A stretch of DNA of 64,000 nt, from UHGV virus genome UHGV-0305822; one strand, 5' to 3'. The notes under the pieces were generated by a model. The model was not told the DNA's origin. It ran no database searches and worked only from the letters and a program-made list of their open reading frames with translations. Both the position numbers and the translations under genes were made by a program. Shown one piece after another: positions 9,139-60,402 of the stretch (its first letter is position 1; each line of letters opens with the position of its first letter). This DNA comes from a virus.

Positions 9139-10045
9139 TTGCCGCCCCTCTATTACGCCCTGCCATCACTACGCGACGAATATATTCGTACGCCTCTACA
9201 CCGATAGAGAAGGCCAGTTGGTTACATCCCGATTCCAGAACGTTAGGTGCATTCTGGAGTTGGTGCTCACCACCGTCTGCATTAATCCAAAGACTTTCGC
9301 TGCAAACGTTACACCCTTCTTCAAACACTTTACTTACTGTAAAGCCGCATTCACGACCATTTACTACATTCAGTCGTTCAATGTTATCCTGAACCTGATA
9401 GTAGCCGTAAATAAAGTTCATGACGTGGTCAGGCGATAAAGGTTTTGGCATTTTCGCATCTAAGAGTAACGTCATTGCACGGAAACCGTAATGGTAAATC
9501 GCGCTGTGCAGCTGAATAATATCTTCGTGCCAGCGTTTGTCCCCTAAACGGTCCCGTGTCAGGACACCCCAAGTCTGGACATTATCCAGCTCGTAGATCG
9601 TTTCCAGTGCTTCGTAACAGCCTTCGTCAATAAAGCGCATAAACGGGCGCTCAGACGACTTAAACCCATCGATGCTAACGTAGACATTGTCAAACTGTTT
9701 TAGCAACGGGAGATGCGATTTACGCATCTTTAAGCCATTGGTATACAACTGGTGTTTGAGTTCTGGACGAATCACTTTTAATTCGTCAACAAACGCCTCA
9801 ATTTTACGGGTTGCCAGTAATGGCTCACCACCCGTCCACTGAATTTCGGTAATGGTTGGATTAGCTTCCAGCGCTTCCAAAATTCGCTCACGTTGAAACT
9901 CTCGCGGAGAATCTTCACGATTCATGTAATAGGCTCCACCGCAGAAGCTACAATCCAGGTTGCACTTGGACGTAGCGACTACGGACAATACGGTGGGTTT
10001 ATCGTATAAACGATTCGATAACCTTGGTTCTGCATTGGTTGTCAT
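9122..10045 (-). CDS. radical SAM enzyme (second, shorter; partial auxiliary Cys cluster)
   Basis: CNLDCSFCGG (Cx3Cx2C); GGEPLL motif; C-terminal ECGF...CNVCSE Cys cluster; overlaps downstream rSAM start by 17 nt. Confidence 0.75.
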   Translation of the reverse strand: MTTNAEPRLSNRLYDKPTVLSVVATSKCNLDCSFCGGAYYMNREDSPREFQRERILEALEANPTITEIQWTGGEPLLATRKIEAFVDELKVIRPELKHQLYTNGLKMRKSHLPLLKQFDNVYVSIDGFKSSERPFMRFIDEGCYEALETIYELDNVQTWGVLTRDRLGDKRWHEDIIQLHSAIYHYGFRAMTLLLDAKMPKPLSPDHVMNFIYGYYQVQDNIERLNVVNGRECGFTVSKVFEEGCNVCSESLWINADGGEHQLQNAPNVLESGCNQLAFSIGVEAYEYIRRVVMAGRNRGAANESSK

Positions 10046-13390: not shown

Positions 13391-13424
13391 TCTCCTTAAT
13401 CCGAGACGTCCTTGTCTCGTGGCG

Positions 13425-18608: not shown

Positions 18609-18621
18609 CGTAAAGACTCCT

Positions 18622-18664
18622 ACTTTTAAATAAAATGGATACCCCTCCCCATTACAGGGAGGGG
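18622..18664 (-). terminator. terminator hairpin between 1401-aa and 1727-aa fibre genes
   Basis: Stem CCCCTCCC/GGGAGGGG followed on minus strand by ATCCATTTTATTTAAAAG. Confidence 0.5.
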
Positions 18665-18702
18665 TTACCTACGGACACACAACTGCCCGCAGGCAGCCTG
18701 TC

Positions 18703-22908: not shown

Positions 22909-22918
22909 AAAATTCTCC

Positions 22919-25900
22919 TTAATCGCGAATGATTACCGCCTGCACTTTATTGTTGGTGTCGATAAACGACATTACGCGCTCCTTGTTAAGATAAGGAGGT
23001 ATCGGTAACGCAGCGTAATCCGCCAGGTTGTTATTAAATTCAGTTGCCACTAACGCATTAAGCGTTTCAGGGTCTGAACTGACACCGGTCAATTCCATAA
23101 CGCGCACACGATTTAATGAGGAATAGTTGCTAATATAGTCTAACAACGTACCATAGACTTTATTCGCGGTTGTGCTATCTGCCGTAGAACGGATGTTGGC
23201 ACGAACTTCATCCTCATAAAGTCCCCCTAAACCGTAGTAAATAGGGGTATACGGATCGTTAACGATAGGTGCGATATTGAACCCTGTTAGACGGTCAGTT
23301 AGAGGGATTTTCTGCGTAGCTCCCCCTGCTGCCGTGCAACTTACGTATTTATCAGTCGCAGATAAAAACACCACGATGGTATACGTAGTGCCCGCTAAGG
23401 TCAATGTTGCGTTAAACGTTATTGCGTTATTTGCAGCACGGGTGTGGGTAAACGTTACGTCAGGTTGTAACGTATTCCACGGCGCAGGCGTAACACGCTT
23501 CGTTGGTGTGAAACCTAACACTACCGATTTCCCGCTACCGAAGTTCAAACCGAACCCTGCGTAACAATATTCACCGTTGCTGTCAGTTAAACGATAACCA
23601 CGAGTGATAAGTAACGACAACCGCATAAACTCGCCGTCGGTGTTTTTCCAACAACCTAAAACAGTTTCTAGCACCGTGCCGGTTTTTGCGTTGCTTTCTG
23701 TTTCCCAACTTACCCGCATTCCTGCGTTCTTAAAAGCTGGGAACATGTTGTGGATAAACCCGTGTAGGTTATCGCTTACCCCTTTCGCGTCAAAAATCCA
23801 CTTGGATGCGAGCTGGTCGTATTTCACCCCGTCTAAAGCTTTATACTGCCCACCGGCAACATAACGCCAATCTGCTTCACCGCGTACTACTGCCTGGAGT
23901 CCAGAAGCCCAGCAAGGTGCGCCTACCGTTAAGTTAGCTAACCCAAGCGTTGCACGTGACGCGGAGCGCTGAATGTGTGCGTTGTCATCGGCTTTATGAT
24001 CTTTCAGTTCACGGAAATCACCCAACCGTGTGACATTACGCATCTCCGTAACGAACACCTCAGAAATGTCGTTAACACCAATCAACCCTACACGCGTCAT
24101 GGTATCCGTTTCAGCCTGACTGTAGCTGTCGTGGACAATATACTTCGCTTTGTTATCAACGATATCAACAAAAATCCCTGCGTAGATTTCTGTATTCAAT
24201 TTCGGAAAACGTTCACTGACGTTAATCGTCATCAACGGAACGTCGTATGTTTCACCACCGATAAAATACGTTGAAGCTGGAAGCGTGACCAGAATTTTGT
24301 CTTTGACCGTAAGGTCTATTAAGTCGTTACCAGACTCACCAAAACGTATAATGTCAAGACGTGCCTCCGAGTCAACGCCGCTGACAGCGCGCTCCAATTT
24401 TTCAATCTGGGAAGTCTGCGCCATTACCACACTCCCATCGAGTGCTAAAGTCGCATCATCCACATCCAGACCAAATTTAATCAGACCACGTTGCGCTGTG
24501 GTTGCGTTCCCAGTACCAAAAGCGGTAAACGGGTGTTGGTGAACTTTAGGCGAGTATTTATCTAACTCCGCACGTTGTGCTGTAGAAATCGGTAAATCGA
24601 CATCGGGCGTATTCGCAACGTTACCTAAACCAAAGGTAATCTTATCGATAGTAACCGAGCTGGTAAGTTGCATGTCGTTAATGTACGATTTAACTGCAAC
24701 TAATTTACCGGTGAACTCCGCATCGAGTTTTTCAATCAGTGCTGGCGTTGCTGCAAGGTTTTCAGCGGTACCGAACTCATCGGTCAACTGCCAAGCTGCC
24801 AGAGCTGTTGTATCGGTCGCGGTAGGGAGAATAAAGGTCGCTACGAACGGCGAGGCTTTTATCCCGCTACCGGTGATCGTAACCGTTGTTGTCGAGTTTG
24901 CGTAGAATAAACCTGTACCACCTGCGGTATTGCCTGGTAGATACGGGGCCACGGTGGTGGGGTCTAAAAGTTTTTTACCACGCCACTGTAACCCTCGATC
25001 ATCAGGATACAACATAAGCTGGTTAGTACCTGCTTGGAACGTTACGGGGTTGTTACCCACGTTAACATCAGTAGAACCTTGACCGATGAACTTAATGGAT
25101 TTCGGATCAACGACAAACTGAGCGCCTAAACGTGTTTCGTCAACAACATCCGGTGCTTTCTTAATGGTAACCGTGTTACCTTTGTTTTGCGAACTAATGG
25201 TAACGGCGTCGGCAACATTATTGATCAGCGATTTAAAGTGGTGCTGATTCTCTAATGCTTCTAACGCGGCGTCCATGTTATTGAAGTTAATCCGACCGCT
25301 ATACGTTTTACTGTTTACGGTAATAACGACGTCAAACACATTCCCTGTACGCTTCAGTTGAAAACGTAGCGTAAAATCCCCATCCGGTATTGCCGGATTA
25401 GGAGCTTGTGAAATATACCGAACTGCCGGTACCGGACTCCCGTAACCGTGCAACGCCAGTTCGATAGTAAGAGTACCGGACCAGACTTCACCGCTAATCT
25501 CTACGTACTTACCGGAGTTACTACCAGGATTTTCGTAGAAACGTAAACCAACCCTACCGACCGCTTCATTACCAGACGCTGTTTTACGACCAGTAACAAT
25601 AAAGTCTATATCTTGCAGGTTGGCAGGCACCGCATTAAAGTTAGCACTGAAACCGCTTTTCGCTCCTGTGTAACGAAGCGCGCCGTGATATCTGTGACCT
25701 CTACTAACATAGCTTTCGCTAAAATAAGGACTCACGTATTTCGACATCGAAACCGGATCAACTTCCGTCGTGAACGAAGTAAAACCCGGAAGTGTGGTAA
25801 TCGTGCCGTTAACGTTCTTGCTCGCCGATTCACGAAGCAGTTTTTTCTGTGCGGTTAACGTTGCTTGTGTTGGGTACTTAGCATTAACGTAATCCGTTAA

Positions 25901-27241
25901 CTGCTGTTTCGTTTTCCCGTAAGCTAACGCGGCATCCGACGCAATACCATTCAGCTCTAACGCACGGATCGGACCCCACGTATCGGTGTGCGGGTTGTCC
26001 TTACGTGTAACGTGTTCGTGTGCAGGCGCGTTACGATACAGCTGCTCAACTAACTGATGGTATTTGACTATTAACTGGTAGACATCGTTATCGACGTCAG
26101 GTTCTGGTGCGCCGGGTAAAGAACGAATTTGAATATAATCGTTTTCGGCCGCATACCAGTTTAAATTAATGTTCGTTTTAAACTTCAACCATTTAGCAAC
26201 ATCCGTTTTCGAATACCCTGCCGAGAACTCATCAGGCGGTGTATCGACATTGAATGTGTAATCCATGGTCTGTTTATTTGTTTTTACTACGATGACGTAA
26301 ACACCGTTTCCGGGTTGACGGGTTACACTAAAATCGATATCGTTTTTTAACTCATCGTCAGTTAAACCGTTGATTAACGTATAATCGTAGTTTGTTGAAC
26401 CGCTACCAATAGCGACCGTTAAGACCAGTGAGATTTTGCGCTGTTTTAGCTGCAACCGTAGAATACTTGCACCGCCGTTAGCATAACAGAGCATCCAATC
26501 GATCTGTTCGTTTGGATTCAATTTCGTCATGTCTGGCAGAATAGCAGGAATTCTGTGTTTCACTGACAGGGCGTAGTCGTTAAAGGTTGCAGTTTTATAA
26601 CTCAAGCTATAACGATGACGGGTAGTGTTGTAGGTGAAGCCACCTTTATTGTCGTATACGGCATACTGCTCGGAAGTGATAACCTTGCTATTAGCACGGT
26701 ATTCTAAATCCAGGGTATTGCGTGCGATGGGGTTAAGTCGACTCACGACTTCCCCTAACGAATCGCCTAATCCAGCAATAGCCTGCATTAATTCCAGTTC
26801 ACCTTTCCAATTCTCCCAATCGAACTGGATATCGACCGGCGGAAAGTAAACGTCCCCGATGACGGTGTCCCACTGACACGCAGACGGGTATTTATCTTTA
26901 TTGAGTTCGCGTTCTGCGGTAATCTGTTGTTGGGTAGCCTGACCACAACCAACGGCGTGGTAATCTACCGTAAAATTCGATTTGTATTTGTCATTAACAA
27001 TCCAAATCATCCCGTGAATGAGATAGGCTGTGCGCAACATACCGGTCTCGTACGGGTGTGTAATAACGTAATCGTCGCCTAAGGTCAGTGTTTTGCCGCC
27101 GCTCTTGACCACCAGGGATGTGGTGAAAAAAGGGGCGTGGGCAGGTACCAACATTCGGTATTTCGTACCAATGACGGCGACCGCTTCACCGGTTATTTTA
27201 TTCCCCGGTTTTTTGAAGTGTGGGTCTAGGACGACAGCCAT
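22919..27241 (-). CDS. large tail fibre protein (1440 aa)
   Basis: N-terminal HAPFF ... GDDYVI motif; TTAQRGLIKFG fibre-repeat-like segment; only 10 nt from next gene (co-transcribed). Confidence 0.65.
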   Translation of the reverse strand: MAVVLDPHFKKPGNKITGEAVAVIGTKYRMLVPAHAPFFTTSLVVKSGGKTLTLGDDYVITHPYETGMLRTAYLIHGMIWIVNDKYKSNFTVDYHAVGCGQATQQQITAERELNKDKYPSACQWDTVIGDVYFPPVDIQFDWENWKGELELMQAIAGLGDSLGEVVSRLNPIARNTLDLEYRANSKVITSEQYAVYDNKGGFTYNTTRHRYSLSYKTATFNDYALSVKHRIPAILPDMTKLNPNEQIDWMLCYANGGASILRLQLKQRKISLVLTVAIGSGSTNYDYTLINGLTDDELKNDIDFSVTRQPGNGVYVIVVKTNKQTMDYTFNVDTPPDEFSAGYSKTDVAKWLKFKTNINLNWYAAENDYIQIRSLPGAPEPDVDNDVYQLIVKYHQLVEQLYRNAPAHEHVTRKDNPHTDTWGPIRALELNGIASDAALAYGKTKQQLTDYVNAKYPTQATLTAQKKLLRESASKNVNGTITTLPGFTSFTTEVDPVSMSKYVSPYFSESYVSRGHRYHGALRYTGAKSGFSANFNAVPANLQDIDFIVTGRKTASGNEAVGRVGLRFYENPGSNSGKYVEISGEVWSGTLTIELALHGYGSPVPAVRYISQAPNPAIPDGDFTLRFQLKRTGNVFDVVITVNSKTYSGRINFNNMDAALEALENQHHFKSLINNVADAVTISSQNKGNTVTIKKAPDVVDETRLGAQFVVDPKSIKFIGQGSTDVNVGNNPVTFQAGTNQLMLYPDDRGLQWRGKKLLDPTTVAPYLPGNTAGGTGLFYANSTTTVTITGSGIKASPFVATFILPTATDTTALAAWQLTDEFGTAENLAATPALIEKLDAEFTGKLVAVKSYINDMQLTSSVTIDKITFGLGNVANTPDVDLPISTAQRAELDKYSPKVHQHPFTAFGTGNATTAQRGLIKFGLDVDDATLALDGSVVMAQTSQIEKLERAVSGVDSEARLDIIRFGESGNDLIDLTVKDKILVTLPASTYFIGGETYDVPLMTINVSERFPKLNTEIYAGIFVDIVDNKAKYIVHDSYSQAETDTMTRVGLIGVNDISEVFVTEMRNVTRLGDFRELKDHKADDNAHIQRSASRATLGLANLTVGAPCWASGLQAVVRGEADWRYVAGGQYKALDGVKYDQLASKWIFDAKGVSDNLHGFIHNMFPAFKNAGMRVSWETESNAKTGTVLETVLGCWKNTDGEFMRLSLLITRGYRLTDSNGEYCYAGFGLNFGSGKSVVLGFTPTKRVTPAPWNTLQPDVTFTHTRAANNAITFNATLTLAGTTYTIVVFLSATDKYVSCTAAGGATQKIPLTDRLTGFNIAPIVNDPYTPIYYGLGGLYEDEVRANIRSTADSTTANKVYGTLLDYISNYSSLNRVRVMELTGVSSDPETLNALVATEFNNNLADYAALPIPPYLNKERVMSFIDTNNKVQAVIIRD

Positions 27242-38220: not shown

Positions 38221-38225
38221 CGTTT

Positions 38226-38268
38226 GGGAGAACCTTCGGGTTCTCCCTTTCTTTATTTTTTTCTTTTT
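38226..38268 (+). terminator. rho-independent terminator
   Basis: Stem GGGAGAACC / GGTTCTCCC, loop TTCG, then long T-rich tract. Confidence 0.65.
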
Positions 38269-38298
38269 ACACCACACTCCGTCTTTATGGAGGTGGGT

Positions 38299-40803
38299 AT
38301 GCTAAAAGTTGAACGCATTATACTCAAAGGTTTTACGGGGATGGGGTTACATGAAATTGAAACCTTCGATTTCACTATCCAGTCTCCAACAACAATTATC
38401 CTGGGTGGGAACGGCTGCGGGAAAACCAGTCTACTGTCTGTGTTCTTACCCTTAGCACCGGCTAAAACCGAATTTAGGGACGGCGGTTCTTACACAAACT
38501 ACTGTTTAGTTGGCGATCAACGCTATCGATTCAAAGTTGCCCGTAAAGGCAACTCTTTGGTTTGTGATATTGAGAACTTGACCACGGGGACAAAGATCGT
38601 CGAGCAAGGTAATGCGAAAGTCTACAACTCCCGTGTTGAAGAAATCACGGGTATTACGAAAGAGATTAAAGAACTATTAAATGGTGAGGTGTTGTTAACC
38701 GATGCGGGAACCGAATTACGCCGCAAATGGTTTTACCGTTTAAGTACCTCTGACCTCACTTACGCGTTAGGGTTTTATCAGCGTTTACGTAAAAACCTTA
38801 CTGCCTTAAATGGGGGTATTGAAATCACCAGCCGCAAGATCGCCGAATTACGGACGCGTGTTATTGAGAACGAGGAAGAACGGCAGCAGTTAGCGACGAG
38901 ATTAAAAGGTTTGGAATCGGATTTACGTGAACTGAACCGAGAAATCGAACAGTTGCCAGGATTAAATCGTGCCGTCACCATCGAAACAATCCAAGCGTTA
39001 TTAAACAGCTTGGGCCCAACCATCGACGCAATATTACAACATCGTGGTGGCCTGCCTACTGATGAACAGATACTGACCGCGCGACAAAACGAAGCTACGG
39101 CCCGCGAAGCTGTCGTGTCTACTGAAACAGAGGTATCGATGTTGAATAAAGACTTGTCGTTATTAATGGATGAGTCGACACGACAAGACTACCTGATGCG
39201 GAATCACGAAGGTCTCAAGAATACGCTGGCACGTTTACGTGAGTTACTTACCAAATGGGACACCGAACATCTCTTTCCGGGTCTATTTAACGACAACATC
39301 AATTTAGACCAACTTCGTGCGGCTACAGATGCGCGTGTTTGGGGGCAACGGTTGGGAACAACACTAGACGCAATTCATTCAACCGAAAAACTTAACGTTT
39401 TGGAAGAACGACTTCTGGTGATGGATCAAAAAACCGCAGGGATGCGGGATAGACTCCAGCGAGTGGAGAACGTTTTACAGAATTTAAATCACGAACGTAA
39501 TCACTACTTAGAAACAGCGGAAGTGGATTGCCCGCAGTGTCGGTTTAAGTTTCGGCCCGGTGTTACGCGTTCTTTACCTGAACTTGAGTCTTCGATTCGC
39601 GGACAACAACAGCAGCGCACGGAACTGCAAACACAGTTAGAGGCCCTATTACGCGATCGTGTTGAATTAGAATCTGATGTAACTTATATGCGGCAGGTTC
39701 GTGAGATTGTACTGACGTATTCAAAGGACCCGGTATTGAGCATGTTCTTTAAGCGTTTGCAAGAACGTAACGTTTTCACAGAATCACGCGAACAGTTCGG
39801 GAGTCTATGCGCAGCGTTTGACAGTGAGTTGTACTCTGCTATTGAGTACCATGAAACCCGACAACGGTTAGTGAAGGCGGAAAAAGAATGGCAGGATGCC
39901 GTAGCGGCCGTTGGTAACGTCGATGGTGCTTTACAACAGAAAATCGCCTTCCAACAGTCACGATTAGGTAAAGCCACAGAAATGCTCTCAATGCGTCGTA
40001 GAGAGCACGAACTGGCTAACACGACACTTACCTATCTGGTGAATGTTAAACGTGCTGTAGATGATTTCAGTGCGTTATTCGAACGGTTAGAGAGTGATGT
40101 TAAGGTTACGTTGACAAATACGGTCGTCGAGGAACTCTTACGTGCACGAGAAGGGAAGCTGGATGCTTTTACAACCGCACGCGAACGTTATCGTCAGATG
40201 GAAAATGAATTGAATCAGCTCAACAGTTTGGAACGCGAACTTGCTGACTTACAAGCCCAGCAGTTCAATAACAAACTGATGATTCAAGCCTTCTCGCCAG
40301 AAAAGGGTGTACTTAGAAAGTATTTTTACAACGCTATCGTTAGAATCACAGAGTTAATGACGCGTTATATCGAACAAGTCTGGACGTACCCCATGCGCGT
40401 TATGCCTTGTGACCTCACTGACGGCGATTTGGATTATACTTTTCCTGTCCAGCTAAAAACGCATCCTGAGCCTGTTCCTGACGTGCGTAAAGGGTCTAAG
40501 GCGCAGCGTGCGATATTTAATCTGATGTTCAGGCTGACCGCGTACAAAGCGCTGAAGTTGCATCAGTTTCCGTTGCTTTTGGATGAGCCTTCGGAAGGCA
40601 TGGATGAGGAGCACCGTAACAACCTGGTCGGCTTTATTAAAACGTTAGCAAACTCGGGAGAATTTTCTCAACTGTTGGTAGTCTCCCACGAAGCCGAGGT
40701 TCATTCTAAACTTAATGAAGCATCGTACTGTGTCATCGAACCGGAAGGGGTGACATTGCCTGCGGTGTATAACGAAGGAGTAAAAATTGTTTATGCAAAC
40801 TGA
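38299..40803 (+). CDS. Rad50/SbcC-like ABC-type ATPase with zinc hook
   Basis: Walker A GGNGCGKTS near N-terminus; long coiled-coil-like middle with central CPQC (zinc-hook-like); C-terminal LLLDEPSEGMD Walker B/D-loop; ATG at 38299 after GGAGGTGGG (ORF track start 38224). Confidence 0.7.
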   Translation: MLKVERIILKGFTGMGLHEIETFDFTIQSPTTIILGGNGCGKTSLLSVFLPLAPAKTEFRDGGSYTNYCLVGDQRYRFKVARKGNSLVCDIENLTTGTKIVEQGNAKVYNSRVEEITGITKEIKELLNGEVLLTDAGTELRRKWFYRLSTSDLTYALGFYQRLRKNLTALNGGIEITSRKIAELRTRVIENEEERQQLATRLKGLESDLRELNREIEQLPGLNRAVTIETIQALLNSLGPTIDAILQHRGGLPTDEQILTARQNEATAREAVVSTETEVSMLNKDLSLLMDESTRQDYLMRNHEGLKNTLARLRELLTKWDTEHLFPGLFNDNINLDQLRAATDARVWGQRLGTTLDAIHSTEKLNVLEERLLVMDQKTAGMRDRLQRVENVLQNLNHERNHYLETAEVDCPQCRFKFRPGVTRSLPELESSIRGQQQQRTELQTQLEALLRDRVELESDVTYMRQVREIVLTYSKDPVLSMFFKRLQERNVFTESREQFGSLCAAFDSELYSAIEYHETRQRLVKAEKEWQDAVAAVGNVDGALQQKIAFQQSRLGKATEMLSMRRREHELANTTLTYLVNVKRAVDDFSALFERLESDVKVTLTNTVVEELLRAREGKLDAFTTARERYRQMENELNQLNSLERELADLQAQQFNNKLMIQAFSPEKGVLRKYFYNAIVRITELMTRYIEQVWTYPMRVMPCDLTDGDLDYTFPVQLKTHPEPVPDVRKGSKAQRAIFNLMFRLTAYKALKLHQFPLLLDEPSEGMDEEHRNNLVGFIKTLANSGEFSQLLVVSHEAEVHSKLNEASYCVIEPEGVTLPAVYNEGVKIVYAN

Positions 40804-46417: not shown

Positions 46418-46428
46418 AATAAAAGCTA

Positions 46429-46460
46429 CCCTACTCCTTCGGGAGTAGGGTAATCTTTTT
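46429..46460. terminator. bidirectional terminator
   Basis: Stem CCCTACTCC / GGAGTAGGG, loop TTCG, flanked by A-rich and T-rich tracts; between convergent genes. Confidence 0.65.
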
Positions 46461-47085: not shown

Positions 47086-48459
47086 TTACTCCTCGTCTAA
47101 CTCGGTGTACCATTTCGCTTTCCGAGACAGGATACGATATTCTACGTTGTCGTATTCAAACACCCAGAAGTAGTTATCAGGGTCGGCCTCATCGACCAGT
47201 TTTACAACATCTAAGCTGGTTTGATACGGGTGGTATTCTTCCGCAGCAATAAGTGCCTGGAAGAATAACGCCAACCATTCGGTCGTTGTTTTCGACATAC
47301 GCGCAATATCAGGGTTAGTCGTCGCAATTAACGCATAATCCGGGATAGTTTCGTGTAAGGTCGCTTTCCGTGTATCGTTTTCCGGCCCACTGATTACAAC
47401 ACAGTTTAATGATTTATAAACTGTTGGTAAGTCAGTTACGTCTGTTGTAGGTTTACTGATCGTTTTAGTATTTCTTTCTGCTACCGTCTGGTCTGCCCAT
47501 TCTCCAAACCGACTGATAGCTTTGACCCAGAAATCATATGGAAGGATGGGGGAATAAAGCGCCGCCACATCTTCCTCATTGGGTATCCCACGAATTTTCC
47601 ATCCAGGGACAATTGTAAATTTCGTGGTAGTGAAAATTTCGGGAAATACTTTTACCCCGATAGGGACAGTAAAGCTAGAATTAGCGAGAATATGTTCTCG
47701 CAACGCTTGCTTTATTTTCGTTGGGTTTTTTCCCGCACGTCCGTAGATAATAACCGACATTGGGACAACTAGGGTAGACTCGTAGTTTTCTTGATCGTGC
47801 CAAGTATAGTAGTTGGTTTGGATGGCGGTATAAGGAAACCCTGCCATTAACTCATTGATTTTCTTATGGTGTTCGGTAAGGTTAAACCCTTCCATCGCCT
47901 TTTCAACGACTGACTTGGTCGACAAAAATGTGTCGATTGGTGAAATCGGCATCTGTACTTCGATTTCGAACCCTGTGTAATCTTGATCGAAGTCTTCATC
48001 CGAGAACCAAACAATGATCTGATTATCTACATCAGTGTCATCTTGTACTTGATCTGCCGTTACTTCATATTTCCAGCTCACCCAACGTGGGAACCAGTTA
48101 CTGTTCGTCTGTATCATCGCACCAGACTGAACACCAGAAATGGTTGATTGGAATTGGCCTAATAACAGGCGCTGGAATTCGAGTTCGTCATTTCTCAGAT
48201 TCCCCAAGATGGCTTGCTGGTAAATCCATTGAGAAACGGTTAGAATATGATCAGAAAATTCGGCTGGTACAACAACCGTCTGTTTTTCTCGTTTAGACGT
48301 AAAAGTCACCAATTGAACTTGCAAATTGGTTTTAGTAAACGTCTGTTTACTCTTCGCGTACGAGAGTGTCAAATCCGACAGCTCGCCCACCGGAGCGGTG
48401 ACGCCGTCCTGATTGTCAAACAGTGCCGGTATCTGAATAAAACCTTGTAAGTCTAACAT
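47086..48459 (-). CDS. hypothetical protein (457 aa)
   Basis: Long minus-strand ORF, 3 nt from downstream gene; no motif recognised. Confidence 0.55.
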   Translation of the reverse strand: MLDLQGFIQIPALFDNQDGVTAPVGELSDLTLSYAKSKQTFTKTNLQVQLVTFTSKREKQTVVVPAEFSDHILTVSQWIYQQAILGNLRNDELEFQRLLLGQFQSTISGVQSGAMIQTNSNWFPRWVSWKYEVTADQVQDDTDVDNQIIVWFSDEDFDQDYTGFEIEVQMPISPIDTFLSTKSVVEKAMEGFNLTEHHKKINELMAGFPYTAIQTNYYTWHDQENYESTLVVPMSVIIYGRAGKNPTKIKQALREHILANSSFTVPIGVKVFPEIFTTTKFTIVPGWKIRGIPNEEDVAALYSPILPYDFWVKAISRFGEWADQTVAERNTKTISKPTTDVTDLPTVYKSLNCVVISGPENDTRKATLHETIPDYALIATTNPDIARMSKTTTEWLALFFQALIAAEEYHPYQTSLDVVKLVDEADPDNYFWVFEYDNVEYRILSRKAKWYTELDEE

Positions 48460-48991: not shown

Positions 48992-49447
48992 ATGAAAATG
49001 CTGTTATTCATCATGATGGTGTTCGTGGGGTTGGTGAGTAATAGCTACGGCGACGAAGTTAAACGTCCAGCTTATAGGCCACTGGAACTTCCTCCTACAC
49101 CGCCAATAATGGTGAATTGGAAAATTGACAATAACGCAATGCGTGAGTATGTTGCGGACGTCAACACCTATGCTTACTACGTTTATGTCTACACCCGAAA
49201 TTTAAACCAACAAGCCGTTAAACGTGGCTGGAGCCCACCAATGCTGGCTCCACTTTGTGAGCGTTATGAGTTACCGAAGTTACATGTTGTACCCGAACGC
49301 TTATCTCTTGACGAAAGCTCTTTAACGCCCCAGGAGATTAGCCGTGACCTATCGCGTAAACTCAATAATTTGTTGTGGAATTACCGTTCCGACCGTCAGA
49401 CACTACTCGATTCGTACAACCAATACTTGACATCGTGTTTGTACTGA
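48992..49447 (+). CDS. secreted protein (signal peptide), 151 aa
   Basis: MKMLLFIMMVFVGLVSNSYG signal-like N-terminus without lipobox Cys; ATG at 48992. Confidence 0.5.
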   Translation: MKMLLFIMMVFVGLVSNSYGDEVKRPAYRPLELPPTPPIMVNWKIDNNAMREYVADVNTYAYYVYVYTRNLNQQAVKRGWSPPMLAPLCERYELPKLHVVPERLSLDESSLTPQEISRDLSRKLNNLLWNYRSDRQTLLDSYNQYLTSCLY

Positions 49448-49451
49448 CACC

Positions 49452-49493
49452 CCCTCCTGTACCCATTCGTGGTACAGGAGGGTCTTTCTTTTT
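49452..49493 (+). terminator. rho-independent terminator
   Basis: Stem CCCTCCTGTACC / GGTACAGGAGGG followed by TCTTTCTTTTT. Confidence 0.65.
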
Positions 49494-49537
49494 AACGTTT
49501 GTAACTATTTTAATGTAGACTAACAGGAGAATTCAAC

Positions 49538-50272
49538 ATGACCTACCCAAAAATTGTCACCCCGTACACCCCGACGCTGGTTATTGGCGCTGATGCTGAA
49601 ACCAAATCATTACGTCCCGATGCTTATCTGTTAAGTGCGGGTTTAGTGGCTTTTGACGTCCCTACATTGAAAATGGTAGGTTCCTCATACATCAGGATCG
49701 ATCCTAACGATCCTAAAGCAAAAGCCATTTTCCACGAAGACCCACAAACCGTTGGTTGGTGGGAAGGTAAAGGCGAACCCGAATACGCACCGTCTCGTGA
49801 AGCCTATGCGGAAGCGTGGGGTGGGACGACAGCATTGCCAGACGCGCTCTGGGCGATGCAAAAATGGCTCGGGGAGATCACCGCAAAACATGAGTTTGTG
49901 ATTACCATGCGTGGCCCTGACTTCGATGCGCCGATTTTCATGAACGCATTCGCACAATGTGATATTCCGCCAGGGAAGTTCCGTAAATTCAGTGCACTGG
50001 ATAGCGATCGTACCGCAGAACGTTTAGCCTTTGCATTTGGGTTCGAGCCTGACCTAACCGTAGAGCAAATTTACTGGACACGCGGTAAGCCCGCTTTTGA
50101 GCACCACGCAATGTGGGATGCAGCAAAAGAAGCCTACACCACGGCACGTATTTACCACCTCGCTTTGGTCACTCGCCAATACGGGTTTGAACGCGCCAAA
50201 GCCTGTCACGAAGAACTGAAAACGGGCGAGTATGTTGCGCCGCAGATTCGTGATCAATTAACCAGGGATTAA
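49538..50272 (+). CDS. DEDDh-type 3'-5' exonuclease (DnaQ-like) candidate
   Basis: VIGADAETKSL (DxE Exo I motif) and HHAMWDA (H-x4-D Exo III motif). Confidence 0.55.
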   Translation: MTYPKIVTPYTPTLVIGADAETKSLRPDAYLLSAGLVAFDVPTLKMVGSSYIRIDPNDPKAKAIFHEDPQTVGWWEGKGEPEYAPSREAYAEAWGGTTALPDALWAMQKWLGEITAKHEFVITMRGPDFDAPIFMNAFAQCDIPPGKFRKFSALDSDRTAERLAFAFGFEPDLTVEQIYWTRGKPAFEHHAMWDAAKEAYTTARIYHLALVTRQYGFERAKACHEELKTGEYVAPQIRDQLTRD

Positions 50273-50274
50273 GA

Positions 50275-51795
50275 ATGAAGAACGTTGATGTTGCAGTAAT
50301 TTACACGGATGGTAGCCATTTGACCTCCCCGCTCGGTACAGGAGCGGGGATTCATGGATACTTATTTAATCGTGAAGCGATTGAGGATGGTCGGGTTTAC
50401 CGCCATCCCTCTATTCCCGAGGGGATTACGACGTCAGGATACCGCCAGATAAACAAGGATGAAAAACTTCCACCTTTACCAGAAACCGTGGAGTTTATTG
50501 ACGGCGTTGTGCCTGTACCAAAAATGTCACACTCCGACGTTGCAGAACTCGTGGCTTTCCTGACCGTCTTCGAACACGCACCTTTCGTTGCCAAAAACTA
50601 TGTTATCTATATCGATGCCTCTTACGTTGTCAACACGTATAACGATTGGATTGATGGTTGGGCTGCACGCGGCTGGCGTCGTGCAGACGGTACGCCTATT
50701 GCGAACTTGGAATTAATCCAACGGATGTGGGAAGTTAAACAGCGGTTAAAGAAAGAAGGGAAAGGTATCCGTGTCCTTAAAATTAAAGGGCATTCAGGAC
50801 GCTATGGAAACGAGCGTGCCGACGAGTTAGCACGGAAAGGTTCAAGTATTTCGGCTCGAGGTGATGGGTTAGACTATACACCGTATTGGTCAAAAGACGA
50901 GATGCCTGAGGAAGAACAGCAACCAGAAGTTGTTGGTGAAGGTGTCAATTTGTCTGCTTTTCCCGATATCTGTGTTACGAAGTTCTGTTACCCGATGGTG
51001 AACGAACCGCATCCCACTGTTACAGTTAACGGTAATAAACTTTATTACATGTTCGGTGGGAACCATGCAAAACAGAAGGACGATATCGTCTTCGTTGGTA
51101 AGTACATTCCAGATGCACAATTCTGCGTAATGTTTACCAAAGAACCATGGAACAACGTATACGAGTTGGTAAATACCCACTCTGCGAAAGCGTGGGAAGG
51201 GGTGCCCCGTTTACGTCAGTTTGATCCCATCGCCGTTGTTTTTAACTTATTCGTAAAACGTAAGAAGTTCGCAGAAGCCGCAGGTAACGGTATTCCTGTC
51301 GATCGGATGCATTTTAGCGAAGACAAAAACCTGTGGATGTTTGAAGATCTTTCGATTACACGAATTCTTCGTCCCGCGTTATTGTCTTATCGCTGCATTA
51401 CGATTCGTGATGAGCTTGCAGGTTGGTTACGCGATGCCATGGAGGGGAAAAACTCAGTCGTAATGAACGACATTACTGACCTGCTTTACGATGAGAAAGG
51501 TAAGCCGAAGAAAGACTTTTATCGTAACGTAGATAAAGGTTTTGACGTAACCATCCATATCCCTGGTAGCAAAAACAAGGTTAAAACCATCCTTACTCGA
51601 GGTATCGACATACCGACGCGTACGGAAATCAACCGTATGAAAGAACCAGAAGGACGATTCTACGTGGCGGTAAGGCGTCCAGAACGGCAGTATATCGAAT
51701 ATGCGTTGGTTTATATTGGGGAAAAATATCATGGGTTGTGGTGTGGCTATTATTCAAACAAACGAATATTGACGGATAAGGAGCTTGAATGCTGA
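50275..51795 (+). CDS. RNase HI domain fused to ~310-aa C-terminal domain of unknown function
   Basis: VAVIYTDGS; DVAELVAFL; IDASYVVNTYNDWIDGWAARGWRRADGTPIAN; KGHSGRYGNERADELARKG all parallel E. coli RNase HI motifs (TDGS; NN.MEL.A; TDSQYV..GI..W...W..RGW.TA; KGH.G...NE..DELA). Confidence 0.75.
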   Translation: MKNVDVAVIYTDGSHLTSPLGTGAGIHGYLFNREAIEDGRVYRHPSIPEGITTSGYRQINKDEKLPPLPETVEFIDGVVPVPKMSHSDVAELVAFLTVFEHAPFVAKNYVIYIDASYVVNTYNDWIDGWAARGWRRADGTPIANLELIQRMWEVKQRLKKEGKGIRVLKIKGHSGRYGNERADELARKGSSISARGDGLDYTPYWSKDEMPEEEQQPEVVGEGVNLSAFPDICVTKFCYPMVNEPHPTVTVNGNKLYYMFGGNHAKQKDDIVFVGKYIPDAQFCVMFTKEPWNNVYELVNTHSAKAWEGVPRLRQFDPIAVVFNLFVKRKKFAEAAGNGIPVDRMHFSEDKNLWMFEDLSITRILRPALLSYRCITIRDELAGWLRDAMEGKNSVVMNDITDLLYDEKGKPKKDFYRNVDKGFDVTIHIPGSKNKVKTILTRGIDIPTRTEINRMKEPEGRFYVAVRRPERQYIEYALVYIGEKYHGLWCGYYSNKRILTDKELEC

Positions 51796-52457
51796 TCGTT
51801 TATAGTGAGGTCTTGTCAAAAGCCCCTCGGTTTTTACAAACTCACTTTATGTATAACGCACGGCAGTATTGGGGCTTTAAAGCCCCTTACTCCGAAGATT
51901 GGGAAGTTGTGGAAAAGTTAGCATTTGTGTTTTCTCTTTCGTTGTTGTGGGAGATCATTGCACTATACAACGCAGGTTGTGATATCCCGGAGAACGGCTT
52001 TTTCCAACAACACCTATTCCAAAAATTCACAGCATCGGTAGAAAATCATGAAGTGCGCAAGGAGTGTATCGGCTACGCCGAGCATTCTGAAGAATTGAGA
52101 AAGATTTCCAAATTAGTTATCACGCGGACATGGGCTGAATTCGAAACTTACCCCGAAAAAATAATTTGGTTTAATCGTGAACAGTTTATTAAAGAGGCAG
52201 TCAGTCAACATCCCGTTCGATTAATCGTGTTAAAGCCGTCCGATCTCGCCTTACGCCACACCTATTCGTCTCCAGAGGAAATCGTTTTTTCCTCTGGAAC
52301 AACAGATTATGGTATTTTTAAACAAGGAGATTCTTGGATTCTTCCACACGATTTAGACGGGTATTTGCTCAGTAGCGATCAAATACATTCGGGTTATGAC
52401 TCACAGGTGAAGGAGTTTACAGTCGATCCTTTTTTCGCTAAAAATATTCTTAGATAG
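51789..52457 (+). CDS. hypothetical protein (222 aa)
   Basis: ATG overlapping upstream stop. Confidence 0.5.
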   Translation: MLIVYSEVLSKAPRFLQTHFMYNARQYWGFKAPYSEDWEVVEKLAFVFSLSLLWEIIALYNAGCDIPENGFFQQHLFQKFTASVENHEVRKECIGYAEHSEELRKISKLVITRTWAEFETYPEKIIWFNREQFIKEAVSQHPVRLIVLKPSDLALRHTYSSPEEIVFSSGTTDYGIFKQGDSWILPHDLDGYLLSSDQIHSGYDSQVKEFTVDPFFAKNILR

Positions 52458-52493
52458 ATATTATCCAGGTGTAACACCATTGGAGTTATTAAA

Positions 52494-53231
52494 ATGCTAA
52501 AAGTTTATGTCCCTCAATTACAACGTATCAATCCCTCGTTGTTCGAGGGAATCTTTTATAAAATTTGGCCGCAATACTTCAATGAACATTTGAAGGACCC
52601 AAAGTGGTCAACCGTACAAGGAGAATTCTTTTATACCGCACAGACTGCCTGCACAAACGTCTTTACTCGTCTCATCGCTGAAGTTATTGAGGGCGTCAAT
52701 ACCAACCGAAACTTTGACCTTCGCGACGTCATAATAGATCTCTCAGGGGTCTTCGATAACTACGATTGTGATGACGCCGTATTCGAGCATTTCTCTTCTG
52801 AGGATGTCTGGGAAGCCGTTTATCAATGGCTAGAATACTACGTGAACTTTCTACTCTCTCCAGAGATGTTAGAAAGTTTCAATAAAGCACTCTACCCCAT
52901 TTATAACGACTTAATGAACGTTAAACGGACAAAGAACCTCGTCGGTTTCTGGTTTTCGATTTACGACGCCGAAAGCAGATTGTGGGAAAAAGAAATGATT
53001 GCTTTTGGTATCGAGCGCGGTGATTACGACGAATTGTATCGCGGTTATTGGCCCTTCGATCATCGTGAAAACAGTTGTCAAGGCAATCCGTACTTGTGGT
53101 CTTTTTATTTCTGTAATCAGACTGGTGTTATTTATCTTGAAGACGCTGGCGTACAAATCCCTAACGGTGCTGACGTAACATACTGCCAGTTACGTAAAGA
53201 CCGTGACGACATCATTTATCAGGGCTATTAA
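52494..53231 (+). CDS. hypothetical protein (245 aa)
   Basis: ATG after GGAGTTATTAAA. Confidence 0.5.
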   Translation: MLKVYVPQLQRINPSLFEGIFYKIWPQYFNEHLKDPKWSTVQGEFFYTAQTACTNVFTRLIAEVIEGVNTNRNFDLRDVIIDLSGVFDNYDCDDAVFEHFSSEDVWEAVYQWLEYYVNFLLSPEMLESFNKALYPIYNDLMNVKRTKNLVGFWFSIYDAESRLWEKEMIAFGIERGDYDELYRGYWPFDHRENSCQGNPYLWSFYFCNQTGVIYLEDAGVQIPNGADVTYCQLRKDRDDIIYQGY

Positions 53232-54792: not shown

Positions 54793-54798
54793 TACACA

Positions 54799-54829
54799 CC
54801 CTAGCTTCGGCTAGGGTTACTTTATTTTT
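54799..54829 (+). terminator. rho-independent terminator
   Basis: Stem CCCTAGC / GCTAGGG, loop TTCG, then TTACTTTATTTTT. Confidence 0.6.
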
Positions 54830-54851: not shown

Positions 54852-55778
54852 ATGTATTTGTACAAAAGTAAAAAAGTAAAAGGTATTAAAGACTGCCTTA
54901 GACAAATGGGGTCTCAGCATCTTGAAAATGTCATGGAAGAAAACCGAATAAAGGAAAATCCTGTCTCGAAATGGATAAAAAAGAATCGTAACCATTTAAC
55001 CAATGCCTTTATACCTTACGACGCTGAGTTAGGTCTCAAAGATCCCCGTTCCCTTCACGCACAAACATTGGCAATTGGATGGCTATACGGTGGTGCTTCC
55101 TTAATATCCAACCAAGCACTTAGAGAACTTGTTTTCGAGACTGAGATGCCCAGTAAATTCCCTGAAGAATGGTTGGACTTTATACCTACTTGGACTGTGG
55201 CAATCGACGTAGGTAAAGAGGATGAGACTTTCTTTCTCGGCTATCGAAAAAACGGGAAGAGAAGGTTTATCATAATTGCCACAAATACTGATTACGGGTT
55301 AACAGAAGGCGTTACCACAATTGCCACTTGTTCGTTAGAGCTTCGTAGTGCAGGGAACGGGCTTGTGGAAATCGACTATGCCGACGGTGTGGAAAACGAA
55401 CAAGAAAAGATGTTGTGGTTATCTCTGGCCAAAGCCGCCACTTCGATGATATTTCTGTGCACGCTAATCCCGCCTAACTACAGGGAGACTTTTAATGATA
55501 TTAAGTTCAAGGAAATCAAAAAGAACGGTAGTATTAGTTACGACGTTAAACCTCGTGAACGCGATGTTAAGATAGATATCACGCCAGGACAAGTGAATTA
55601 TCTAAAAGGGTTTAACACTGACTTGAAAACCATGCAGGGTATCAAACATGCTAAGGCTGCCCACATCCGTCGCGCACACTGGCGCAGATATTGGGTCGGC
55701 CCTAGAAATGGTGAAAGAAAGAGAAAACTTTGTTGGATTCCACCTACCTTTGTCCGTGGCTACGTACCCCACAATTAA
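54852..55778 (+). CDS. hypothetical protein, HIRRAHW family member 1 (308 aa)
   Basis: C-terminus AAHIRRAHWRRYWVG...WIPPTFVRGY paralogous to next gene. Confidence 0.55.
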   Translation: MYLYKSKKVKGIKDCLRQMGSQHLENVMEENRIKENPVSKWIKKNRNHLTNAFIPYDAELGLKDPRSLHAQTLAIGWLYGGASLISNQALRELVFETEMPSKFPEEWLDFIPTWTVAIDVGKEDETFFLGYRKNGKRRFIIIATNTDYGLTEGVTTIATCSLELRSAGNGLVEIDYADGVENEQEKMLWLSLAKAATSMIFLCTLIPPNYRETFNDIKFKEIKKNGSISYDVKPRERDVKIDITPGQVNYLKGFNTDLKTMQGIKHAKAAHIRRAHWRRYWVGPRNGERKRKLCWIPPTFVRGYVPHN

Positions 55779-55802
55779 GCTAAAGTGTTTAGGAGTATTA
55801 AA

Positions 55803-56702
55803 ATGACAACGAATAATAGACTTTACGGGAAAGCGCTAAGACGCATGAGTGAACAAATAGAAAAGGCACACCAAACAATTCACGGATTAGATCAGTGTCG
55901 CTTTATTCGGTTCATTAACGAGCATAAACGTCAAATACCCGTAACGTTTATGCCAGTTAAAGATCCGACCTATCGTGAGTATGGCGTTACCGAACAGATT
56001 CCCAGACTGATTAAGCAGTCTCTGGGACTAGGATGGCAATACGCTGCTGTTGAAATCATCTCGGATGAAGAACTGATGGCGCTCTTAGCAAAAACTGAGA
56101 GACTAAAAAATATCCCGTACTTCTGGATAGAAACCATCCCTTCATTTACTTTCTCGGTTACTGTAAATCTCGACGAATGTCCAATCACGTTATTTATCGG
56201 AAGACGTCTTTACGAAGGTGAAGAAGTTCTCTTTGTGATGTCATGCGAAGAACATGACGAGTCGGTATACATGGAGTTTGAGATTTACACGATCGATAAA
56301 AGTAATGATGATTTCGTGGAGTTAAAGCCGCTCCTTACTTCGGTTAAGGAGAATCAACGACTACTCGACGCCGTCTATATCGGGCTATATCTTTCATCAC
56401 GAATTAAGCGAACCGAACGCGAGAAGAAAGAATTTCGCGGAAGGTCCATTCGTTATGTTCCTGATACAGAAATTCGCCCACGTAGTGAAGCAGTCGTTTT
56501 AGATGTAAGTCCGGTACAATGGGAAGATATAGAGCAGCAACGCAAGGAAGGACACGAGGTTTGTTTGGCGATTTATTGTGCCGCACATATCCGTCGTGCG
56601 CATTGGAAGCGTGTATGGTGTGGTAAAATGTCAGAAATGCGCTGGCGCGAATGGCGATGGATAGCGCCGAGTTACATTTCTGGATTTTATCGTGGGAAAT
56701 AA
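55803..56702 (+). CDS. hypothetical protein, HIRRAHW family member 2 (~300 aa)
   Basis: C-terminus AAHIRRAHWKRVWCG...WIAPSYISGF; ATG at 55803 after TTAGGAGTATTAAA. Confidence 0.55.
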   Translation: MTTNNRLYGKALRRMSEQIEKAHQTIHGLDQCRFIRFINEHKRQIPVTFMPVKDPTYREYGVTEQIPRLIKQSLGLGWQYAAVEIISDEELMALLAKTERLKNIPYFWIETIPSFTFSVTVNLDECPITLFIGRRLYEGEEVLFVMSCEEHDESVYMEFEIYTIDKSNDDFVELKPLLTSVKENQRLLDAVYIGLYLSSRIKRTEREKKEFRGRSIRYVPDTEIRPRSEAVVLDVSPVQWEDIEQQRKEGHEVCLAIYCAAHIRRAHWKRVWCGKMSEMRWREWRWIAPSYISGFYRGK

Positions 56703-56710
56703 ATAGTTTA

Positions 56711-56759
56711 CCCCTAGACCGTGTGGTCTAGGGGTAACTTTACTTTTTTTTATTTTTTG
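56711..56759. terminator. bidirectional terminator
   Basis: Stem CCCCTAGACC / GGTCTAGGGG, loop GTGT, then TTTACTTTTTTTTTATTTTTT; between convergent genes. Confidence 0.65.
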
Positions 56760-57918: not shown

Positions 57919-59415
57919 ATGGCAGGCCCAACTAAGCAAGTTATCGGTGAAGTAATTCGTCCACGTTTTAACGTTTACACCATCATGGATCATGCCTTAG
58001 GTAACTACGAAAAAGGTGAAGATGGTTTGTACTACCTTAACGGTGGTTTTGCCCACATCATGGGTTTCGCAGGTCGCGGTAACACCTTTAAATCCACCTT
58101 GTTAGATTTCTGTATTTTCCAAATCCTGCAACGTTATAAAGCAGAGTGGGGTTCTAAGTACGATACAGAAGTGTCCGCTGCCCTCGATCGTTTAGAAACT
58201 GGGTACATCTCTGCCATGAACGCCAACGGTATCGACGACGGAACATCCGTACTGGAGCTTATCCACGAAGGTCGTTATAACCTGGTCGGTTCTGACGTAA
58301 TGCCCGGGGAACAGTATTACAGTGATTATATTCGTGATGAAGTTGAAAAACGCTTCAAACAGTATATGTCTGGTAAGACCCGCGTAACACCGTTCCCCGA
58401 TCCGGTTCGTCGTAAGTTAAAAGAAATCCTGGACCCCTGGCTTTATTCTATCGACTCCCTGTCAGAGTGGCATTCCAGTTCGCTGGAAGACAAGCACGCA
58501 AAAACGGATATCGGGGATTCTGATCAGAACATCCTGAACGCCCACGATGCGCTGCAAAAATCGAATATGATGAGCCGCTGGCCGTCTGCGTTTGCACGCG
58601 GTGGTTTTTACATGGGCTTCGTGGCACAGATGGCCGATGACTCTGGGAAAGCGATGGCGGGTGGCCGACAGGCACAAAAAGCAAATGCGAAAATTCTCGA
58701 CGACGCCAACGACGATCTAAAATTCGCAGGTATTCCTCGCCGTCAGCTTAGCTTCTTAACAAACTCTTTTATCGTCGCGACGAAATCAGGGGAACTGAAG
58801 AAAGACCAGAGCTATAACGCACAGACCGGTGTTAACGAAGAACTTTATCCGACGTCACGTTCTAAAGCGATGAATGCGTCGGTAAACGACTTGAAGATTA
58901 TCACCTTTACCCAGTATCGTGCGAAGGGTGGTCACACCGGTGTGAAATTCCAGATGATCTTCTCTCAGGAAATGGGTCTGTTGTATCACCTGAGCCTGTG
59001 GCATTATTTAAGTGACACGCTGAAGAAGTCAGACTTTGGTTTCACATCAAGCGGTAGTGGAGGTTCCATCAAAGAACTTGACATTCTACCTGGTGTGAAA
59101 TTCCAACGCACGACAATCCGTGATATGATTTCTGATAACGCACGCTTACGTCGCGCTTTAGAAATCACTGCGGCAATTGCGTATATGCAAAACAACTACC
59201 ATCGTCTTGAAATGAAGTATCATCTCAGCATGGGTGAGATTTACAAACTGATTGACGAGAAGTGGGACTGGAATGAAATTCTGGATAACACGGTAGAATA
59301 CTGGATGTTTAAAGACCAGGAAACCAAAGGCGGTAAACGTACACTGACTGCACGTACCATTCTGGGTATGGCTGTTGATGGACTAGAACCGAAGTTCCTG
59401 ACGAAAAAGAAATAA
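57919..59415 (+). CDS. RecA-superfamily recombinase candidate (UvsX-like)
   Basis: GGFAHIMGFAGRGNTFKSTLL parallels the unusual T4 UvsX P-loop region (GG..SGL.ILAGPSKSFKSN) recalled from memory; not a canonical GxxxxGK[ST]. Confidence 0.35.
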   Translation: MAGPTKQVIGEVIRPRFNVYTIMDHALGNYEKGEDGLYYLNGGFAHIMGFAGRGNTFKSTLLDFCIFQILQRYKAEWGSKYDTEVSAALDRLETGYISAMNANGIDDGTSVLELIHEGRYNLVGSDVMPGEQYYSDYIRDEVEKRFKQYMSGKTRVTPFPDPVRRKLKEILDPWLYSIDSLSEWHSSSLEDKHAKTDIGDSDQNILNAHDALQKSNMMSRWPSAFARGGFYMGFVAQMADDSGKAMAGGRQAQKANAKILDDANDDLKFAGIPRRQLSFLTNSFIVATKSGELKKDQSYNAQTGVNEELYPTSRSKAMNASVNDLKIITFTQYRAKGGHTGVKFQMIFSQEMGLLYHLSLWHYLSDTLKKSDFGFTSSGSGGSIKELDILPGVKFQRTTIRDMISDNARLRRALEITAAIAYMQNNYHRLEMKYHLSMGEIYKLIDEKWDWNEILDNTVEYWMFKDQETKGGKRTLTARTILGMAVDGLEPKFLTKKK

Positions 59416-59459: not shown

Positions 59460-59759
59460 ATGCGTTATCAAACGGAGATTGTGGAACGCTTAAGTGAAGG
59501 ATTGGCAAGTGTTAATTTAGAAACAGCGGCCGAATTTCGTGAAGCCTTCACTCACCCGTTTCCCGATCTGGAATCCTTTTGTTTAAAGGTCGCTGAGTAT
59601 TACTCGAATCTATTAGTACGTTACGGGTATGCGCCAGTACGTTCCGAACTTCCTGAAAACACGGAAGCTATCAGCTACTGGATTGACCTGCTTGAAGCAG
59701 AAACGTTATCCAATTTACGTAAGGCGGTAGACAATGAAACTCGAACCAGCGCGGCGTAA
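59460..59759 (+). CDS. hypothetical protein (99 aa)
   Basis: ATG after TAAGGAG. Confidence 0.45.
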   Translation: MRYQTEIVERLSEGLASVNLETAAEFREAFTHPFPDLESFCLKVAEYYSNLLVRYGYAPVRSELPENTEAISYWIDLLEAETLSNLRKAVDNETRTSAA

Positions 59760-60402
59760 AAAGGCGGAAGCCTACGCCTTACAAATCTTAAAGTTGGTAG
59801 ACCCTTCTGGCATTAATGCCGAAGCCGCGAAGAAAGCCTTCGCACGAATGACCGACGAACAGTTTAACCGACTTCGTAACGGTTTGCCTATTTACAACCC
59901 GGTGGGAAGTAAAGTCGAAATTGACCACCTGCGCAATATCGAGGTGTGCAAAATTCTCGGGGTAAACCTGGAGCAACGACTCTGGTTAACAGAACCAAAA
60001 ACGGGTGTTTATCACCGTACTCGTTACCCTCACTTAGTCTTACGCTTGCCTGTCCGTCGTCAGACACAGATGCAAGAAAAGAAAATGGCGGTTGCGAAAA
60101 ACGACAAAGTTCGCGATAAGCTCTCCGGTCAAGTCGTCGGACCTTCCAAAGCATCCGGGGTGTCCTTCCCAGAGGCATACATCATGTACTCCGATGGTCA
60201 CGACTGGACACTGAAAGAGTTCTTGTGGGCGCGTGGTGGTAACGACGCACTACAACGTGCTTTCTATCAATCGCTGCGCCAAACCGGTAAAGGGCGTATT
60301 GATTTGCCTGGAGCGGAGCGAACAAGTTCTAAAGCAACGCGTACGTGGTCGGCGTACCTAAAAGCGATGCATATCGGTAACAACATAGGCCATCCGTCAT
60401 GA
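59734..60402 (+). CDS. hypothetical protein (222 aa)
   Basis: ORF overlapping upstream gene end. Confidence 0.45.
   Translation: MKLEPARRKKAEAYALQILKLVDPSGINAEAAKKAFARMTDEQFNRLRNGLPIYNPVGSKVEIDHLRNIEVCKILGVNLEQRLWLTEPKTGVYHRTRYPHLVLRLPVRRQTQMQEKKMAVAKNDKVRDKLSGQVVGPSKASGVSFPEAYIMYSDGHDWTLKEFLWARGGNDALQRAFYQSLRQTGKGRIDLPGAERTSSKATRTWSAYLKAMHIGNNIGHPS

Follow-up and report, generated by a model that had tools for sequence, protein, structure and literature searches.

A probable RNase H-clamp ortholog encoded next to a DEDDh exonuclease in an uncultured jumbo phage

Introduction

The stretch of viral DNA analyzed here (UHGV virus genome UHGV-0305822; 64,000 nt, hereafter the window) carries, at 50275..51795 on the + strand, a gene in which an RNase HI is continued by a large C-terminal region. 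The locus poses the question of what this region is and what it does for the nuclease to which it is attached. The initial annotation regarded the region as uncharacterised and the product as a composite nucleic-acid-processing enzyme. The best explanation, with a probability of roughly 80%, is that the gene encodes the Rhc/Nlp2 ortholog of a nucleus-forming jumbo phage, most probably an uncultured SPN3US/Asesino-like one, in which an RNase H is tethered to a clamp-like polymerase accessory module. The present analysis bears directly on the domain architecture, the intact catalytic residues, the modelled clamp-like fold, orthology, and synteny.

Characterized members of the family are ΦKZ155 (Nlp2), an RNase HI-domain core protein of Chimalliviridae, and the Rhc protein of phage Goslar. 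ΦKZ155 cuts RNA/DNA hybrids in vitro, and its knockdown stops nucleus maturation and genome amplification (PMC12571901). The Goslar protein was named Rhc, for “RNase H-clamp”, in an October 2026 preprint, whose abstract presents it as indispensable and as the third subunit, bound to DNAPC, of a DNA polymerase made up of DNAPN, DNAPC, and Rhc (PMC13648698). As far as that abstract and the ΦKZ work go, the description of the C-terminal domain as uncharacterised no longer holds: its fold appears to be clamp-derived and its family has been studied (PMC12571901, PMC13648698).

A single gene with two domains

The open reading frame begins with ATG, is uninterrupted, and encodes 506 amino acids plus a stop codon, arranged as an RNase HI domain, an acidic linker, and a clamp-like domain. 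Its length and the two-domain AF2 model agree with the single-polypeptide architecture of the Rhc family, and the profile phrog_3265 (“ribonuclease”, 496 positions) covers aa 1–504 of 506 (E=3e-170). The fusion of an intact RNase HI to a second conserved domain in one gene, as first annotated, is thereby borne out.

A search for the same fusion elsewhere, proposed with the initial annotation, recovers it widely. More than 150 cluster representatives have the fused form, and tblastn with the window protein finds 122 phage records in which coverage is 80% or higher. The C-domain alone matches 147 phage records, all of jumbo phages, with hosts including Pseudomonas, Erwinia, Salmonella, Serratia, Ralstonia, Escherichia, and Vibrio. 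When 1.84 billion representatives are searched exhaustively with the C-domain by HMMER, 127 proteins are returned, almost all of them ~470–560 aa long with the match at their C-terminal end.

This distribution bears on the trivial explanation of the fusion as an artefact, with two separate genes run together by a frameshift or misassembly; practically no credence can be given to it. The reading frame is unbroken, the same 506-aa call is made in independent metagenome assemblies, and the C-domain is C-terminal almost throughout the family. P0077, P0138, and P0143 at first resembled C-domain proteins that stand alone, but this idea was rejected: P0077 is truncated by the end of a 902-bp contig and the sequence of P0143 starts partway through the RNase H domain, which makes both of these fragments. 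The wide distribution of the fused form, together with the fragmentary nature of the short matches, refutes the two-gene alternative.

Broken copies do occur among database entries. Several Salmonella SPFM-series GenBank records (P0050, P0052, P0053, and P0055; H90 and H130) have broken or frameshifted RNase H-clamp and exonuclease genes, which probably reflects sequencing errors in the deposits.

The RNase HI domain

The catalytic domain (50275..50859, +; aa 1–195) has the type 1 RNase H fold. Pfam RNase_H (PF00075) matches aa 81–190 with 75 bits against a cut-off of 25.8 (E=8.8e-21), phrog_531 (“Rnase H”) matches with E=1.2e-26, and RNase HI/H1 sequences in the PDB match at ~1e-11. The motifs that had been picked out by eye thus align in profile searches, and the five catalytic residues D12, E91, D114, H173, and D183 are all present. 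These correspond to D10, E48, D70, H124, and D134 of E. coli RNase HI. Across the family alignment, 152 of the 162 members keep all five. The domain also contains an E. coli-type basic protrusion (WIDGWAARGWRRADGTPIAN). On these grounds the active site is judged to be intact, and cleavage of RNA/DNA hybrids is predicted. The protein scores 65 bits where the NCBIfam equivalog cut-offs demand 160, and is thus not a cellular rnhA equivalog.

At ~195 aa, rather than the expected 155, the domain is enlarged by a structured and conserved insertion of ~40 aa after strand 2 (aa 32–72; 50368..50490, +), which also explains why the Pfam alignment begins only at residue 81. This family-specific insertion is modelled confidently, includes a tyrosine (Y56) that is more than 90% conserved, and is common to the Goslar and ΦKZ orthologs. 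It could serve as an interface for the polymerase, for Imp1, or for the C-domain. Compared to E. coli RNase HI and human RNase H1, the phage protein is therefore distinguished by the 40-aa insertion and by a C-terminal extension of 310 aa, and unlike eukaryotic RNase H1 it has no hybrid-binding domain.

Four full-length metagenomic members (P0070, P0072, P0076, and P0110) apparently lack catalytic residues and have kept the clamp-like domain; P0072, for example, reads “-TVLD”. If the alignment is right, they fit a nuclease-independent function in some lineages.

The linker and C-terminal domain

The two domains are connected by an acidic linker (50860..50940, +), in which aa 200–222 have a pI of 4.05 and include 8 D/E residues. 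The AF2 model has pLDDT below 50 at aa 209–219, where the linker is disordered; a conserved tryptophan, W205, is located just ahead of this segment. The pTM is 0.57 for the full-length model and 0.86 for the C-domain alone, which indicates two rigid domains whose mutual orientation is undefined.

The C-domain (50941..51792, +; aa 223–506, ~285 aa, pI 8.85) is conserved within the family. Across more than 145 diverse members, G262, G275, P367, T401, D445, and R449, as well as W205, are more than 90% conserved, while H264, K276, D280, R373, D399, and P447 are conserved at ~80–90%.

Sequence comparison gives this domain no relatives outside the Rhc family in Pfam, NCBIfam, or the PDB, in line with the first impression that the C-terminal ~310 aa hold no recognisable motif. 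A Pfam scan at E up to 10 finds no clamp family and only a noise-level BNR_3 match, NCBIfam has no match for this part of the protein, and phmmer finds none in the PDB. A profile built from 21 diverse C-domains matches only a ribosomal protein among PDB sequences (E=0.54), and Pfam scans of the same 21 members one by one yield scattered single matches and no clamp family. By sequence the domain does not belong to PCNA_N/C, DNA_pol3_beta, Rad1/Rad9/Hus1, gp45, or similar Pfam families.

The best matches of the structural model are two-domain clamp protomers (9-1-1, PCNA, and gp45), with 150–178 residues aligned. In a Foldseek search of the C-domain against the PDB, the top five are all archaeal PCNA with E values of 0.009–0.07, which are individually not significant; the third is the PCNA:RNase HII complex 3p83, matched through its PCNA chain. 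With the full-length model, clamp proteins are the sole large structural matches that are not RNase-H-like. Judged from the model, the fold is probably clamp-derived and strongly diverged. This clamp-like reading, reached independently from the window protein's own sequence, agrees with the description of Rhc in the preprint abstract. A weak similarity also extends to herpesvirus processivity factors (HCMV UL44, HSV UL42, KSHV PF-8, and EBV BMRF1), which have no sequence relationship to the C-domain and no fused enzyme.

Since the best structural matches are protomers of ring-forming clamps, the protein might itself assemble into a true closed ring, that is, a PCNA/gp45-like homotrimer placed around DNA by a loader and carrying three RNase H heads. 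Such a ring, as opposed to a non-ring subunit, is a distinctly improbable arrangement. The preferred reading, a clamp-like accessory subunit, leads us to infer that the C-domain is a DNA-binding, polymerase-tethering module. The outline of a composite nucleic-acid-processing protein built on a fused RNase HI thus stands, but the second domain is probably not a second enzyme.

Orthology and gene order

Megablast of 49400–52500 against the phage collection gives no match, which makes the phage a new one in terms of nucleotide sequence. No record has exactly the sequence of the window protein either, and the 99%-identical P0001 was used as a stand-in. The best protein matches are gp226 of Erwinia phage Asesino (66% identity), Salmonella SPFM19/SPN3US-like proteins (64%), and Erwinia phage Kwan (57%). 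The Asesino and SPN3US-like proteins, deposited as “putative ribonuclease H” (phrog_3265), are the closest cultured relatives, match over the full length, and are encoded in an identical local gene order, including the exonuclease immediately upstream. At the nucleotide level the window phage matches none of them; it is distinct, has not been cultured, and also occurs in metagenome assemblies. Asesino, its nearest relative, is a demonstrated nucleus-forming phage (PMC11724907).

Homology to the characterized members is collinear over the full length. In the Phikzvirus SL2, gp188 aligns with aa 5–494 (E=2e-30), and its length (482 aa) and syntenic position equal those of PHIKZ155. Through this SL2 counterpart, ΦKZ gp155 is homologous to the window protein from end to end and shares its catalytic residues, with D114 aligned to the Asp of “LMDSEY”, taken as D102. 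It differs in length (482 aa), in sequence (24% identity), and in having the small ORFs gp156 and gp156.1 upstream instead of an exonuclease. In Goslar, Goslar_00246 (QBO64037.1, “putative ribonuclease HI”) is collinear over aa 68–497 (E=1e-26). Goslar Rhc has the same two-domain architecture and nearly the same length (508 vs 506 aa), and Goslar is a jumbo phage of the nucleus-forming group, to which the window phage probably also belongs; both have a divergent virion-protein gene upstream. The identity is again only 24%, and a 183-aa hypothetical protein is encoded upstream in place of the DEDDh exonuclease.

That Goslar_00246 is Rhc we infer from its architecture, because the gene is not numbered in the abstract of the preprint and “gp246” in Corbett/Pogliano-lab numbering denotes ChmA (PMC11077065). 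The C-domain matches no other locus of Goslar. The numbering is a trap in its own right: the laboratory “gp246” is ChmA, whereas Goslar_00246 of GenBank MK327938.1 is the RNase HI-like protein.

The gene order of the window parallels ΦKZ gp157→gp149 and gp165. The syntenic genes encode a divergent virion structural protein (47086–48459), a UvsX-like recombinase (57919–59415), an RNAP β-subunit piece (59734–60402), and an SbcC-like protein (38224–40803); as in ΦKZ, small ORFs are found between the virion structural protein gene and the RNase H gene. The 64-kb window contains no chimallin-sized ORF. Judged by these comparisons, the window gene is a diverged ortholog of ΦKZ gp155 (Nlp2) and Goslar Rhc.

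The upstream exonuclease and the transcription unit

The gene immediately upstream (49538..50272, +) encodes a 244-aa DEDDh 3′-5′ exonuclease, as first annotated, and belongs to the Rv2179c-like family. It matches PF16473 (Rv2179c-like 3′-5′ exoribonuclease) with 44 bits against a cut-off of 27 (E=2.5e-11) and phrog_255 with E=3.8e-44, and has the motifs D19-A-E21 (Exo I), F129-D130 (Exo II), and H189-x4-D194 (Exo III). Its TAA stop is followed by “GA” and then by the Rhc ATG; the 2-nt gap given by the initial annotation is exact, and the two genes are probably translationally coupled across it. Downstream, a 222-aa ORF of unassigned function (phrog_9472; 51789..52457, +) has an ATG that overlaps the Rhc stop by 7 nt and is probably co-translated with the Rhc gene in one unit. 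The trio of 244-, 506-, and 222-aa genes is recovered by independent gene calls in metagenome assemblies of a 99%-identical phage.

A strong terminator-like hairpin with a 12-bp stem and a T-rich tail (49452..49482, +) closes the upstream unit. It is followed by an AGGAG Shine-Dalgarno sequence ahead of the exonuclease ATG, and the interval between hairpin and ATG is a likely promoter region. Five further ORFs separate the Rhc gene from a second terminator-like hairpin (54798..54817, +), which suggests a seven-gene + strand unit that starts at ~49.5 kb and probably ends at this hairpin. A sigma-70 promoter scan finds 14 sites, fewer than in shuffled controls (22.7), and is uninformative, which is no surprise in phages that rely on RNA polymerases of their own. 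Strong bidirectional terminator-like hairpins with 12–13 bp stems and T-runs on both strands are also present between convergent genes at 46426–46453 and 56708–56737, and the four hairpins split the region into short transcription units.

The adjacency of exonuclease and RNase H genes is kept in Asesino, SPN3US-like, Kwan-like, and CR5-like phages. Small hypothetical genes occupy the exonuclease position in Goslar and ΦKZ, tblastn with the exonuclease matches no ΦKZ-like or Goslar record, and its other homologs are found in unrelated small Vibrio phages. The exonuclease is therefore a clade-specific accessory rather than a partner conserved throughout the Rhc family; for the same reasons, its candidacy as a family-wide partner or as the DNAPN piece of the polymerase was rejected.

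Within the SPN3US/Erskinevirus/CR5-like clade only, the acquired exonuclease and Rhc might form one RNA-removal module at the replisome, a tentative proposal with the odds against it. The RNase H would first nick primer or R-loop RNA, and the exonuclease would then degrade the released 3′-OH RNA fragments or trim the 3′ ends of R-loop RNA. The site would be the phage nucleus, from which host RNases are excluded, and other Chimalliviridae would solve the same need differently.

Several features elsewhere in the window are of separate interest. Tandem paralogous ORFs at 54852–55778 (308 aa) and 55785–56702 (305 aa), both + strand and both phrog_6160 of unassigned function, have the basic C-terminal motif AAHIRRAHW(R/K)R.W.G in common. 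On the − strand, 12185–27241 holds four paralogous virion structural genes (401, 1727, 1401, and 1440 aa) with a common N-terminal phrog_2163 module; the set looks as though giant virion proteins had multiplied within one lineage. Two adjacent radical-SAM-domain ORFs with overlapping ends (7816–9138 and 9122–10045, −; both phrog_1802) are unusual cargo for a phage replication/structural region.

Proposed mechanism and alternatives

Polymerase association, DNA binding, nuclear localization, and essentiality of the window protein would carry over from the papers on its orthologs, which are ~25% identical to it. In the favored mechanism, the type 1 RNase H would be active and joined through a flexible acidic linker to a module of two subdomains with a clamp-derived fold. 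By orthology, the protein would be imported into the phage nucleus, where the clamp-like domain would bind DNA and dock on the C-terminal piece of the split phage DNA polymerase, acting as a processivity or accessory subunit of the herpesvirus type. Travelling with the polymerase, the RNase H would cut RNA in RNA/DNA hybrids and thus remove primers during replication and resolve R-loops left by the phage RNA polymerases.

The covalent fusion would parallel the way in which PCNA holds RNase H2 and FEN1 non-covalently in archaea and eukaryotes. The logic is the same in that a clamp retains a primer- or ribonucleotide-removing nuclease at the fork. The PCNA systems, however, employ a type 2 RNase H and a non-covalent PIP box, whereas the window protein has a type 1 RNase H that is covalently fused.

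It is unlikely, but deserves consideration, that the essential role is non-catalytic, with cleavage dispensable and the RNase H domain mainly sensing RNA/DNA hybrids, or acting as a structural element, to license genome amplification. The D102N variant of ΦKZ155 has no RNase H activity in vitro and yet fully complements the knockdown (PMC12571901), and the few members with apparently degenerate catalytic residues point the same way. The retention of the catalytic set in the great majority of the family argues instead for selection on catalysis, and according to the preprint abstract Goslar needs the catalytic activity of Rhc (PMC13648698). ΦKZ, moreover, carries a second RNase H, gp199 (PMC12571901), which might mask the defect of the D102N variant.

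The remaining alternative, that the C-domain is chiefly a protein-protein module (an Imp1/PicA import determinant or a scaffold) whose clamp resemblance is vestigial and which makes no DNA contact, is very unlikely. It would account for the import of Nlp2 into the phage nucleus, which is Imp1-dependent and relies on specific Imp1 surfaces (10.1101/2024.03.27.586873), for the only mildly positive net charge that goes with the pI of the C-domain, and for its dissimilarity in sequence to clamps. The domain nevertheless has conserved basic residues, and the preprint, in its abstract, reports that the C-terminal domain of Rhc binds DNA and is needed for replication (PMC13648698). A polymerase-associated, clamp-like module that contacts DNA is the reading that we retain.

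Significance

The fusion, the fold, and the role have already been published, and relatives are deposited as “ribonuclease H”; the window protein thus opens no new question. Nucleus-forming jumbo phages count RNase H-clamp proteins among their core, essential replication factors, and building a nuclease that would remove primers and R-loops into a clamp-like polymerase subunit is an unusual solution. What the window adds is a diverged ortholog, 66% identical to that of the nearest cultured phage and ~25% to the studied members, that helps to define the family invariants, namely the catalytic DEDHD set together with W205, G262, G275, P367, T401, D445, and R449. It also reveals a clade-specific exonuclease next to the Rhc gene.
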